A DNA stretch of 64,000 nt from Candidatus Aenigmatarchaeota archaeon. GTDB taxonomy: Archaea; Aenigmatarchaeota; Aenigmatarchaeia; QMZP01; QMZT01. The stretch lies in the NCBI GenBank assembly GCA_016932735.1, contig JAFGCI010000006.1, positions 36,167 through 100,166 of the forward strand. The letters run 5' to 3'. The notes beneath the pieces are model-generated. The model was not told the origin of the DNA, did not search any database, and saw only the letters and a list, made by a program, of their open reading frames with translations. The stretch's first letter is position 1, and each line of letters opens with the position of its first letter. The translations under genes and the position numbers were made by a program. Shown here in pieces: positions 2,988 through 39,495 of this stretch.

Positions 2988-3050
2988 AAGAAATAATTAC
3001 ATGCGCTTTTTTATATTACTCAATATTTGCATATTTCTTAAGAAGTGAAA

Positions 3051-3133
3051 CGCTGGAACTGGGATTTGAACCCAGGAACCCCGAAGGGAACAGGGTTAGC
3101 AACCCTGCGCCTTAACCGCTCGGCCATCCCAGC
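3051..3133 (-). tRNA. tRNA-Ser (anticodon GCT), long variable arm, no intron
   Basis: Reverse complement is GCTGGGATGGCCGAGCGGTTAAGGCGCAGGGTTGCTAACCCTGTTCCCTTCGGGGTTCCTGGGTTCAAATCCCAGTTCCAGCG. It forms a 7-bp acceptor stem (one GU), an anticodon loop TTGCTAA (GCT), a long variable arm, a T-arm CTGGG/TTCAAAT/CCCAG and discriminator G. Confidence 0.8.
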
Positions 3134-3184
3134 ATTGGTATATCTTAAATGAAAACAATTAAATAAAAAGAAATGTGTTTGTTT

Positions 3185-21463: not shown

Positions 21464-21673
21464 GGGCTCGTAGCTCAGCCTGGTGAGGCTTTAAGCCTTT
21501 AGGCAATTAGAGCACCAGACTCTTAAACCCAGGATATGCCGAATTTCCTTCTGGAAATGATGACTTGGAGATATCTGGGGGTCGCGGGTTCGAAACGGTA
21601 TTTGCAAAGTAATTTGTAAATGTGTTTCATGATGCACCATGCATCAGTTGCCGGTGAAATCCCGTCGAGCCCA
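21464..21673 (+). tRNA. tRNA-Lys (anticodon CTT) with three putative introns
   Basis: Exon 1 is GGGCTCGTAGCTCAGCCTGGT (21464-21484). Exon 2 is AGAGCACCAGACTCTTAA (21509-21526). Exon 3 is TCTGGGGGTCGCGGGTTCGAA (21574-21594). Exon 4 is TCCCGTCGAGCCCA (21660-21673). Spliced, they give a 74-nt cloverleaf with a 7-bp acceptor stem, D-stem GCTC/GAGC, anticodon stem CCAGA/TCTGG, loop CTCTTAA and T-arm GCGGG/TTCGAAT/CCCGT. The introns are about 24 nt (D-loop 20/21), about 47 nt (37/38) and about 65 nt (T-loop 59/60). Confidence 0.55.
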
Positions 21674-21676
21674 TTT

Positions 21677-22315
21677 TTATTTATCAGGAAGCCTGTTTCT
21701 TGTATTCCTTTCTACCTGCTTCTTGTAGCCGTAATCGACTTTCTTTGCTGTTGCGAAAAGGGCCGCCGGTATAGCGAATATTCCGATTGCGCTTTTCCAC
21801 GCGGCTTCCTGAACGGTTTTGGGCGGTTCTTTTAAGAAATAATTGGCCGTTGCCCCGACTGCGGCAGCTTCTGCAATCATGCCGGCTGGGTGCAAAATCC
21901 TTCTGGATGTGGTTTTGAACTTCCTCCTCACATGCTGTCCAAATCTTCTGAAATGGCTGTCATAATTGAAATTGCTCCTTCCTGTAATCCTCTTCCTGCT
22001 CTCGCTGTAATTGAAATACACGCGTCCCGTCTTGCCTGAGTCGTTGTTTGTGACGTAAGCAACACCATCATAAGAATCCGTTTTGTTGGTTCTTGCCCTG
22101 AATTTTTTATCTCCTGTAGCTATTTCTATAGTGCCAATACTGTAATCAACGCCAATCTTTCGTCTTGGGACAAGGCTGTTCCTTAGTTTGGTATAAATTG
22201 CAGAATGCTGATATCCTTTTAACCTGCTGGTTTGCTTCTTCGGGTCAAGATATACACTCTTCATTATTTCACCAATTACGAGTATTTTGTCACCAAATCT
22301 TATAAAACTAACCAC
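21677..22315 (-). CDS. hypothetical protein (212 aa)
   Basis: The ORF ends 4 nt downstream of the tRNA-Lys 3' end. Confidence 0.45.
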   Translation of the reverse strand: MVSFIRFGDKILVIGEIMKSVYLDPKKQTSRLKGYQHSAIYTKLRNSLVPRRKIGVDYSIGTIEIATGDKKFRARTNKTDSYDGVAYVTNNDSGKTGRVYFNYSESRKRITGRSNFNYDSHFRRFGQHVRRKFKTTSRRILHPAGMIAEAAAVGATANYFLKEPPKTVQEAAWKSAIGIFAIPAALFATAKKVDYGYKKQVERNTRNRLPDK

Positions 22316-38091: not shown

Positions 38092-38424
38092 TCATTTTGA
38101 AACTCTTCTGAAATTTATCTTATTTGAACCGTCATACCGGGTTCCGTATAAGTCGTTATCAACTATTCCCCAGCAGGCCTTTTCGTTTAATCTAATAAAA
38201 AATCCATAATCCTTTCTCTGAACCTCAATGCCGTCGCCCAGATGTTCAAATTGCTGTCTCTGGATAACGGCTTTCATCTTAGTTCCGTCTTGGGTTTTCA
38301 AAGGAATTTCCACTGGTTTATACTGAATTTTTCTGTTTTTGATTTCCAGCATATCGACAGTACATGCTTCTTGCTGGGTGAAATATATATCAATATCATC
38401 TCCGATGAAAGTTCCTCTGGACAT
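38092..38424 (-). CDS. hypothetical protein (110 aa)
   Basis: ORF only. Confidence 0.4.
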   Translation of the reverse strand: MSRGTFIGDDIDIYFTQQEACTVDMLEIKNRKIQYKPVEIPLKTQDGTKMKAVIQRQQFEHLGDGIEVQRKDYGFFIRLNEKACWGIVDNDLYGTRYDGSNKINFRRVSK

Positions 38425-38459
38425 AAGGGAATGTTATATTAAAGAAATTAAAATAAAAG

Positions 38460-38738
38460 TCCCGGGAAGGAGAATTTCAGCCTTATTTTCCCAAATTTCC
38501 TTTGAACTTGAGTTTCATCTCTGCGCCAGCAGAGTGGTTCCGACTTTTGAACTCCTAACCTATCGGTCTCAAAACCGAGCGATTGCGTCCAACAAACACA
38601 CTCCACAGACCGTGGCTTCGTCATCGTGCGCCCGTCTACAGCCGATCGCTCTAATACCCGAAAACTCCGTCGTTGAATTTCTTTGCCGACACATGAAATG
38701 TGTCTTTCCAGAGTTCCACCAGGTTGAGCTACCCCGGG
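38460..38738 (-). tRNA. tRNA-Tyr (anticodon GTA) with three putative introns (same positions as tRNA-Lys)
   Basis: GC-rich ORF-free 279-nt segment flanked by cccggg on both sides. On the minus strand, exon 1 is CCCGGGGTAGCTCAACCTGGT (38738-38718). Exon 2 is AGAGCGATCGGCTGTAGA (38652-38635). Exon 3 is CCGATAGGTTAGGAGTTCAAA (38566-38546). Exon 4 is TCTCCTTCCCGGGA (38473-38460). Spliced, they give a 74-nt cloverleaf with acceptor CCCGGGG/TCCCGGG, anticodon stem ATCGG/CCGAT, loop CTGTAGA and T-arm AGGAG/TTCAAAT/CTCCT. The introns are about 65, 68 and 72 nt. Confidence 0.55.
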
Positions 38739-38786
38739 ATTATAACATATTATGATTAAAAAGTATAAAAGTATTATTGCAGGGTA

Positions 38787-39140
38787 TTATTCAAGATAGG
38801 AGCTGAATTTGCCTTCAAGAGCCGTTTTCGGCAGGGCTCCTATGATCGTATCTATGTGCTCACCGTTTTTGAATACGAGCAGCGCCGGTATCGACATGAC
38901 GCCGAATTTCTGCGCTATGGCCATGTTCTTGTCAATCTCGGCCTTTCCGAAAACAATCTTTCCCTCAAAGCTTTTTGCGAGTTCGTCTATGACCGGGGAA
39001 ATCATCTTACATGGCATGCACCACTCAGCCCAGCAATCTACAATTGTCAGGGGGTATTTCTTTATGAATTCATCGAAATCGGAATCATTCACTTCCTGCG
39101 GTTCATTAGGGAATTTAGCCATAAAATCACTCCTTATCAT
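38787..39140 (-). CDS. trx: thioredoxin
   Basis: The 'WAEWCMPCKMISPVIDELA' active-site CxxC motif (Cys-Met-Pro-Cys). Confidence 0.85.
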   Translation of the reverse strand: MIRSDFMAKFPNEPQEVNDSDFDEFIKKYPLTIVDCWAEWCMPCKMISPVIDELAKSFEGKIVFGKAEIDKNMAIAQKFGVMSIPALLVFKNGEHIDTIIGALPKTALEGKFSSYLE

Positions 39141-39495
39141 CCTTTATGGATTCGTTAATGCCTTCTTCATCCGTGAGAAGGTTGCTTTCAAAGAATATCT
39201 TCTCCATCACCTGCGATATGAAAAGCTGTTTTTCAGCAAGCAATGGGTCATTATGCGAATTGATGCTGCACCATATCTGCAATCTCAGAAGGGCGTCCCT
39301 TAGCTGTTCCCTCGATTTCTCTTTCATATTATCTGCCACTTTCTCCATCAGGCTGAGATTGAAAATGAATTCCATTGGCTCCTTAATTGATTTAAGAAGC
39401 ATCTGGGCGAATTTAAGGTCTATGCTGTATTTTTTCGTCCAGACCGGAAGAGACATCTGCCTGTCCCCTGTAATCACGTTTTCAAGTTTTACCAT
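39127..39495 (-). CDS. hypothetical protein (122 aa) between trxB and trx
   Basis: ORF only. Confidence 0.4.
   Translation of the reverse strand: MVKLENVITGDRQMSLPVWTKKYSIDLKFAQMLLKSIKEPMEFIFNLSLMEKVADNMKEKSREQLRDALLRLQIWCSINSHNDPLLAEKQLFISQVMEKIFFESNLLTDEEGINESIKDDKE

Follow-up and report, generated by a model that had tools for sequence, protein, structure and literature searches.

A tRNA-Tyr(GUA) gene predicted to be spliced at three sites in a Candidatus Aenigmarchaeota archaeon

The tRNA-Tyr locus and its relatives

The gene described here, a tRNA-Tyr(GUA) gene in four exons and three introns, lies on the minus strand of a 64-kb stretch of DNA from a Candidatus Aenigmarchaeota archaeon (contig JAFGCI010000006.1; the whole stretch is referred to as the window). 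It spans 279 nt (38460..38738) and does not encode the terminal CCA. An earlier reading of the letters alone, referred to as the sequence-only reading, had placed a tRNA-Tyr with anticodon GTA at these coordinates without stating a strand and had put its introns at about 65, 68, and 72 nt. The gene proved to be on the minus strand, and every sequence element quoted for it is present. The exon pieces lie at 38738-38718, 38652-38635, 38566-38546, and 38473-38460 (CCCGGGGTAGCTCAACCTGG(T); (T)AGAGCGATCGGCTGTAG(A); (A)CCGATAGGTTAGGAGTTCAAA; TCTCCTTCCCGGGA), and the gaps between them are exactly 65, 68, and 72 nt.

When joined, the exons are called by ARAGORN as a 74-nt tRNA-Tyr(gta), with C1-G72 and A73 present. 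Given the unspliced 291 nt, the same program makes no call, with or without its intron option, and the gene is recovered only once it has been spliced in silico. Within 38460-38738, the Rfam tRNA model (RF00005) likewise has no match, whether the gathering threshold or an E value of ≤10 is applied, as expected for genomic sequence that carries three long insertions. The spliced molecule has an acceptor stem of 7 bp (CCCGGGG/TCCCGGG, followed by the discriminator A), a D stem of 4 bp (D arm, GCTC-AACCTGGTA-GAGC), an anticodon stem of 5 bp (anticodon arm, ATCGG-CTGTAGA-CCGAT), and a T stem of 5 bp (T arm, AGGAG-TTCAAAT-CTCCT). G18 and G19 are found in the D-loop and U33 in the 7-nt anticodon loop, and the T-loop UUCAAAU conforms to UUCRA. 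The tyrosine identity set read by archaeal and eukaryal tyrosyl-tRNA synthetases (TyrRS) consists of C1-G72, discriminator A73, and anticodon GUA; the window gene has all of these elements, and so does each of the six relatives described below.

The segment had been described as GC-rich, and its G+C content is indeed 50%, versus 36 to 42% in the flanks and 43% in the window. The same reading called it free of open reading frames (ORFs), which does not hold literally: a mechanical 138-amino-acid (aa) ORF with a TTG start runs antisense across the whole tRNA-Tyr gene and is uncalled in the public assembly. This frame is spurious, because the intron lengths of the relatives differ by non-multiples of 3. 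Gene callers blind to the tRNA could mis-annotate the frame as a hypothetical protein.

The host is a DPANN archaeon: the window matches a contig assembled from run SRR13394437, and NCBI lists proteins identical to those encoded nearby (locus tags JW716_) under Candidatus Aenigmarchaeota archaeon. The thioredoxin reductase encoded near the tRNA gene is only 64% identical to that of the closest GTDB species representative, and the next matches, at ~50%, include other DPANN archaea mixed with other archaeal and bacterial metagenome-assembled genomes. In order, the genes at this locus are PadR, thioredoxin reductase, an ORF of 122 aa that is specific to the clade, thioredoxin, and tRNA-Tyr. By following this order, we gathered six lineages in addition to the window, seven in all (L082/83/84/95; L092; L085/86/94; L088/89/93/L002; L098; L096/97). 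In all six, tRNA-Tyr(GUA) lies directly downstream of the thioredoxin gene, and the thioredoxins range from 93% to 54% identity to that of the window. More distant thioredoxin homologues (P0014, P0056, P0094, and P0116) belong to other lineages, and no tRNA adjoins the gene there.

Across the seven lineages, the exons are nearly invariant. All 105 of 105 cloverleaf cells (21 pairs in five distinct mature sequences) are paired, every one of them with a standard pair. In the T stem, two pairs have both of their bases changed (A-U to G-C; G-C to C-G or U-A), the acceptor pair G7·U66 is A7-U66 in relatives, and the observed covariation score is attained by only 1 of 500 shuffles. The few changes in the exons are compensatory or wobble-compatible where they fall in stems, and the rest are in loops. 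The occurrence of the split gene in six further lineages, the complete pairing, and the doubly changed T-stem pairs indicate more than a chance assembly of tRNA-like pieces. Every relative also carries an A/T-rich TTTATA or TTTTTAAA at about positions −26 to −36 and a T-run 3′ of the gene. The corresponding elements of the window (Table 1) are a putative archaeal promoter and a putative archaeal oligo-T terminator. Together, these comparisons make it highly probable that the segment is a functional tRNA-Tyr(GUA) gene that is spliced at three sites.

TABLE 1 Coordinates of the tRNA-Tyr gene parts and of other features
Feature	Coordinates	Strand	Description
Exon 1	38719..38738	-	C1-G19: acceptor 5′ strand, U8 A9, D-stem 5′ strand, D-loop AACCUGG
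Intron 1	38654..38718	-	65 nt, D-loop, 19/20; bulges GG^U and AU^U; central helix ACCU/GGGU; inner hairpin GACAC/GUGUC
Exon 2	38636..38653	-	U20-G37: D-stem 3′ strand, G26, anticodon-stem 5′ strand, CUGUAG with anticodon GUA; invariant in all lineages
Intron 2	38568..38635	-	68 nt, canonical position 37/38; relaxed bulge-helix-bulge motif
Intron 2 core CACGGUCUGUGGAGUGUGUUUGU	38592..38614	-	Same in six of seven lineages; holds CGGUCU and the G/U-rich strand of the alternative helix
Intron 2 segment CGCAAUCGCUC	38577..38587	-	AUCGCUC complementary to exon 2 G22-U28 (GAGCGAU)
Exon 3	38546..38567	-	A38-A59: anticodon-stem 3′ strand, variable loop AGGUU, T-stem 5′ strand, UUCAAA
Intron 3	38474..38545	-	72 nt, T-loop, 59/60; strict helix-bulge-helix-bulge-helix motif
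Exon 4	38460..38473	-	U60, T-stem 3′ strand CUCCU, acceptor 3′ strand UCCCGGG, discriminator A73
TATA-box-like TTTTATA	38764..38770	-	26-32 nt upstream of C1; read from sequence
Two T4 runs (TTTTATTTT)	38450..38458	-	Begin two bases past A73; read from sequence
Antisense 138-aa ORF	38339..38755	+	Mechanical ORF; spurious
122-aa ORF	39127-39495	-	Between thioredoxin reductase and thioredoxin genes
tRNA-Lys(CTT)	21464-21673	+	Exons 21464-21483, 21507-21525, 21573-21594, and 21660-21673 (bulge-helix-bulge rule)
Octamer AUGAUGAC	21557-21564	+	In canonical intron of tRNA-Lys; C-box-like
212-aa ORF	21677-22315	-	Adjoins tRNA-Lys
tRNA-Ser(GCT)	3050-3134	-	Uninterrupted
tRNA-Tyr orthologues lacking intron 3	L096 813-1025; L098 1388-1569		T-loop intron wholly absent

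The introns of the D-loop and the T-loop

To place the exon-intron boundaries, we applied the bulge-helix-bulge (BHB) rule, under which two 3-nt bulges on opposite strands flank a 4-bp helix and each cut falls after the second bulge base. For intron 1, the same reading is obtained in all six variants: a 5′ bulge G18 G19 ^ N and a 3′ bulge N N ^ U20. The central helix, formed by A15-Y16-C17-U17a with U-R-G-G/A, has four of four pairs in every variant (ACCU/GGGU, AUCU/GGAU, AUCU/GGGU, and ACCU/AGGU). Its second pair, at C16, is C-G, U·G, or U-A depending on the lineage and has thus changed on both sides. The D stem, broken by A14·A21, forms the outer helix. The body of the intron ranges from 31 to 70 nt and is unalignable between lineages; between the two closest lineages, the inner hairpin shows an A-U to G-C change, which occurs in L082.

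The sequence-only reading had placed this intron at 20/21. The BHB rule moves it by one position, to 19/20 (between G19 and U20), although the two placements give identical mature sequences in the window genome. They yield different products in L092 and L096, where the first base of the intron is A, and 19/20 is the only one to give a single conserved mature sequence across lineages.

The D-loop helix can slide, which tells against a fixed 5′ boundary. Minimum-energy folds pair both G18 and G19 and extend the exon-intron helix to 6 bp, with G18/G19 facing YC or CU in five of the six variants, and a strict 4-bp, two-bulge reading exists in this position as well (partly hand analysis). Cleavage there, one register further in (G19 N20 ^ ... 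UA ^ N), would leave an 11-nt D-loop and would place variable bases (U/A) in the mature tRNA. Cleavage at 19/20, in contrast, gives the identical 9-nt D-loop AAYCUGGUA in every lineage, next to a helix that is fully paired in all six variants and has one pair changed on both sides. We therefore regard the further-in register as rather unlikely.

Intron 3 has a strict helix-bulge-helix-bulge-helix (hBHBh′) motif in every lineage that carries it. The T stem serves as the outer helix, U54 U55 C56 A57 (UUCA) pairs with UGAA in the central helix, and the bulges are A58 A59 ^ N and N N ^ U60 (AA^A and AU^U in the window). The inner helix, GUC/GGC in the window, covaries among lineages (G-C, U·G, C-G versus G-C, U·G, G-C, A-U versus G-C, C-G, C-G). 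The intron is 72 nt long in three lineages and 39 nt in two, with a common core, TGCTGGCGCA, in both forms, and it is absent from the remaining two, L096 and L098. There the T arm is continuous (GCGAG-TTCAAAT-CTCGC in L096 and GTGAG-TTCAAAT-CTCAC in L098), which fixes the exon boundaries of intron 3 at 59/60. Judged by this presence/absence and length polymorphism, intron 3 was gained or lost within this tRNA-Tyr family.

The canonical intron

For intron 2, the sequence alone permits cuts anywhere from 35/36 to 39/40. We chose the canonical position, 37/38, because of a 3′ bulge AG^A38 beside the anticodon stem and a C32-G pair, both of which occur in all variants of the intron. Past C32-G, the central helix reads U·U, G·U, U·U in the window and in L085; U-A, G·A, U·U in L092; U-A, G·U, U·U in L098; and U-A, G·A, U-A in L096. 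One to three extra bases face the 5′ bulge, ahead of a closing stem of 5 to 6 bp (CGGGCG/CGCUCG). Read in this way, the exon-intron motif is a relaxed BHB that resembles a bulge-helix-loop (BHL). Of the three introns, BHB motifs are thus found in introns 1 and 3, where they covary among the relatives, and only in relaxed form in the canonical intron.

Intron 2 is 77 to 99% identical to its counterpart in each relative. Over the same divergence, intron 1 of the same transcript has been fully replaced, and in the adjacent thioredoxin gene the third codon positions are 38 to 56% identical and the first and second positions 73 to 97%. Six of the seven lineages share an unaltered 23-nt core, which varies in L098; this core occurs once in the window, and a 20-mer taken from it is found in the metagenome collection only at tRNA-Tyr loci. 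The conservation itself is solid, and by these sequence comparisons, purifying selection acts on the canonical intron as strongly as on the exons.

Such conservation could reflect a guide RNA, either one encoded in cis (box C/D, as in pre-tRNA-Trp) or one acting in trans for which the intron is the docking site (as in Sulfolobales pre-tRNA-Tyr). Functional or constrained tRNA introns have precedent, and 8 nt into the intron there is a C-box-like AYGAUGA, which is a perfect match in L092 and L096 and has a CUGU 12 nt after it. As a box C/D small RNA (sRNA), however, the intron was rejected. The C box reads AUGGUGA in L098 (GA to GG), and no D box (CUGA) is conserved, the 3′ end being UUGA, AAGA, or UAGA. 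The 12 nt that follow the "C box," where the guide would lie, are the most variable part of the intron. A kink-turn (k-turn) of G120-A121 with G156-A157 fails in L096, which has GG at the second site, and Rfam box C/D models have no match in the tRNA-Tyr segment. A trans-acting H/ACA guide is disfavored by the distribution of the constraint: the intron bases beside U35, its would-be target, vary, while the distal part is invariant. We consider a guide function of either type improbable.

Two other candidates were also rejected. A micro-ORF starting at the ATG of the intron (22 codons in L092 and L096, ~59 in the window) lacks a synonymous-site pattern in the core, as judged by hand inspection, and in L085 a 1-nt deletion shifts its frame. 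A nested or second BHB was set aside since the motifs common to all variants are alternative registers of one G/U-rich strand, and cutting at them yields no tRNA.

The conserved part of the intron has partners within its own transcript. AUCGCUC, in the 3′ half of the intron, has its complement in exon 2 at G22-U28; RCGC is complementary to G31-U35 if U33 bulges out; the G/U-rich strand pairs with G37 together with the initial 10 intron bases; and CGGUCU of the core is complementary to A36-G41 across the splice junction. CGCUC has a competing partner in the 5′ end of the intron (GGGCG). Over six distinct sequences, the resulting alternative helix has standard pairs in 131 of 132 cells; 7 pairs differ on one side only, and 1 differs on both. 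Ten of the 11 substitutions at paired positions keep the pair (event count by hand), and the apical loop has transversions as well. Every variant, even the two that diverge most, has this helix as its minimum-energy fold, only 0.9 to 6.5 kcal/mol below the cloverleaf-constrained fold, which leaves little energy between the two states. The helix is incompatible with the D stem, with the anticodon stem, and with the closing-stem/BHB fold of intron 2; this last fold is 91% paired with one double change.

With low confidence, we suggest that intron 2 is conserved chiefly because its 3′ half is required to pair both with G22-G37 of exon 2 and with the 5′ end of the intron itself. The long exon-intron helix would compete with the cloverleaf, giving a bistable precursor, and while formed it would bury the strand of the D stem together with the anticodon and the 5′ splice site. 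In this model, which we advance tentatively and hold to be possible rather than probable, the canonical intron would be a conserved cis-acting element that switches the precursor between a spliceable cloverleaf and the exon-intron helix. Several observations count against it. For its base composition, the alternative helix has an unremarkable stability (z = −1.3; 21 of 200 shuffles fold as well), and the duplex energies of intron and tRNA are no better than those of shuffled introns; thermodynamic significance was for these reasons dropped as support for the pairing. The G/U-rich strand tolerates any transition opposite it, and shuffle controls on the helix pair counts are uninformative with six sequences.

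A precedent for two competing folds is the euryarchaeal pre-tRNA-Trp intron, which reportedly encodes a box C/D guide whose pairing with its target competes with the BHB fold (work attributed to Clouet d'Orval and colleagues in 2001 and to Singh and colleagues in 2004). Intron 2 would resemble it as a conserved canonical intron that pairs with its own exons in a fold excluding the splicing-competent one. It differs in having no conserved D box or k-turn and in that the paired exon region is G22-G37 instead of the surroundings of positions 34 and 39. In Sulfolobales, an H/ACA guide that directs pseudouridine 35 pairs with the intron and anticodon arm of pre-tRNA-Tyr(GUA) (PMC2651775). The tRNA species and the intron position are the same as here, and RNA-RNA pairing constrains that intron as it may constrain intron 2; whereas the Sulfolobales guide is a separate sRNA and the constraint lies beside the anticodon, the conserved part of intron 2 is distal and its complement is in the same transcript. 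Both are known cases of a conserved tRNA intron with a function, and intron 2 fits neither.

Separately, we observed that CGGUCUGUGG of the canonical intron is complementary, with G·U pairs, to C32-G41 of the spliced tRNA, over the exon junction. Taken with AUCGCUC, it makes intron 2 resemble an interrupted antisense copy of positions 22 to 41.

Predicted processing of the precursor, comparison with known genes, and significance

What is observed in the gene is its sequence, a cloverleaf that is conserved and covaries, and, for introns 1 and 3, the geometry of the BHB; the processing pathway is a prediction. With its own TATA-type promoter, the gene would give rise to a precursor of ~280 nt. 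EndA, the splicing endonuclease of archaea, would cut it at the BHB at 19/20, the relaxed BHB at 37/38, and the strict BHB at 59/60, and an RtcB-type ligase would join the four exons. End trimming and CCA addition would then give a 74-nt tRNA with the archaeal tyrosine identity set. Weighing against this pathway, intron 2 has no strict BHB, its central helix having two to three of four pairs in the relatives, and no EndA homologue was seen in the 64-kb window, although this was a weak test made with a Methanocaldococcus jannaschii query.

The silence of standard tRNA finders and the lack of a clean BHB at the canonical intron would also be expected of a decaying tRNA pseudogene with insertions, the cell being served by a separate, intact tRNA-Tyr gene (the tRNA gene search in the source genome covered the 64-kb window). 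Yet the exons have stayed nearly invariant across lineages in which neighboring synonymous sites are near saturation; such changes as they show are compensatory, wobble-compatible, or in loops; the BHB helices of introns 1 and 3 are kept by covariation; and a promoter-like element and a T-run are retained. A pseudogene is accordingly a very unlikely explanation. Another structured RNA with coincidental tRNA-like pieces, such as signal recognition particle (SRP) RNA or RNase P RNA, both of which the sequence-only reading had considered and set aside, might be suggested by the 279-nt length, the raised G+C content, and the absence of a called gene, but we give it next to no credence, since neither has an Rfam match even at an E value of ≤10, no family reaches threshold, the matches at an E value of ≤10 are at chance level (a Staphylococcus sRNA, a microRNA, and small nucleolar RNAs), and near-invariant exons around introns 1 and 3 that vary in length or vanish are the reverse of what a contiguous structured RNA would show.

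A functional tRNA-Tyr gene with three introns would not be alone in the window. As the sequence-only reading had proposed, the tRNA-Lys gene has introns at the same three positions, which are 19/20, 37/38, and 59/60 when the same BHB rule is applied. The first is 23 nt long, follows G19, and has a strict BHB (mature D-loop, AGCCUGGUUA); the canonical intron is 47 nt with a strict 4-bp helix; and the 59/60 intron is 65 nt with a good inner helix and a relaxed central helix (two of four pairs). ARAGORN calls the joined exons as tRNA-Lys(ctt), and both ARAGORN and Rfam miss the unspliced gene. The shared insertion architecture of the two genes is thereby supported. Similarity of intron sequence is another matter: among the nine Tyr-Lys intron pairs compared with shuffled controls, eight are within range and one, at a fraction of 0.04, does not survive nine comparisons. 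Given this lack of sequence similarity, recent transposition of an intron between the two genes is not supported.

Some further observations concern the surroundings of these genes. The C-box-like octamer of the tRNA-Lys canonical intron (Table 1) is the same as that of the tRNA-Tyr canonical intron in L092 and L096, which may be chance; no D box was found in the tRNA-Lys canonical intron. A scan of the 64-kb window for disrupted tRNAs by T arm and acceptor, allowing T-loop insertions, gave only tRNA-Lys, tRNA-Tyr, and tRNA-Ser as credible candidates. The tRNA-Ser(GCT) gene is uninterrupted and scores 59.9 bits with Rfam; two of the three tRNA genes are split, each with three long introns. Apart from its own NCBI record, the 212-aa ORF beside tRNA-Lys lacks homologues in the protein collection. 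The 122-aa ORF upstream of the thioredoxin gene has no Pfam domain and only 7 homologues in a collection of 5.8 billion proteins, all in this clade and all at the same position.

Multi-intron tRNA genes are already known, and tRNA-Tyr adds one to them, together with an unexplained conserved canonical intron. Non-canonical introns in Thermoproteales are mostly a few tens of nucleotides long; in comparison with these crenarchaeal genes, the tRNA-Tyr introns are long (65 to 72 nt) and their host belongs to DPANN/Aenigmarchaeota. Three-intron tRNA genes are known there in Pyrobaculum calidifontis (tRNA-Glu(UUC)) and Pyrobaculum islandicum (tRNA-Pro(UGG)) (PMC4390854), and non-canonical intron sites, including 20/21 and 59/60, have been catalogued in Crenarchaeota (PMC4090602). 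As in the Thermoproteales genes, three BHB-type introns, one canonical and two non-canonical, interrupt tRNA-Tyr; standard finders miss the gene; and the insertion points at 59/60 and at about position 20 are known ones. Unlike the transposed intron families of Thermoproteales, the Tyr and Lys introns here have no sequence similarity. Introns in the D arm, the anticodon arm, and the T arm together are also found in a tRNA of a red alga (PMC9602550); that gene has the same three-arm distribution, but it is eukaryotic and nuclear, its sequence is unrelated, and its origin is probably independent.

Closer to the present host, DPANN genomes reportedly contain many disrupted tRNA genes and have incomplete predicted tRNA sets (PMC5829648). 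Broad-specificity splicing endonucleases have been described from them, namely, the epsilon2 EndA of ARMAN-2 and alpha4 enzymes with an L3 loop (PMC3239211, PMC5829648), and DPANN endonucleases with extra loops reportedly accept relaxed motifs (PMC5829648, PMC12397907). The tRNA-Tyr gene belongs to the same superphylum; its relaxed BHB would be expected to be cleavable, and incomplete tRNA sets are attributed there to hidden disrupted genes. Among the papers covered by our literature search, none deals with tRNA introns of Aenigmarchaeota.

Recent DPANN surveys, those of complete genomes included, report "missing" tRNAs and discuss gene loss or split genes (PMC5829648 among them). Hidden multi-intron genes such as this one are a concrete alternative and bear on inferences about host dependence and genome completeness. 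The relatives also show intron dynamics at close range: the 59/60 intron is present or absent, the D-loop intron has turned over while its 4-bp BHB helix covaries, and the canonical intron is frozen. This frozen intron, which lacks the hallmarks of a guide RNA, is a testable case of a tRNA intron selected for more than its removability. If the precursor does switch between two folds, the switch could order the removal of the three introns, gate tRNA-Tyr maturation, or present the anticodon region to a modification enzyme before splicing, and the intron would then be one that has a function yet carries no known guide-RNA motif.

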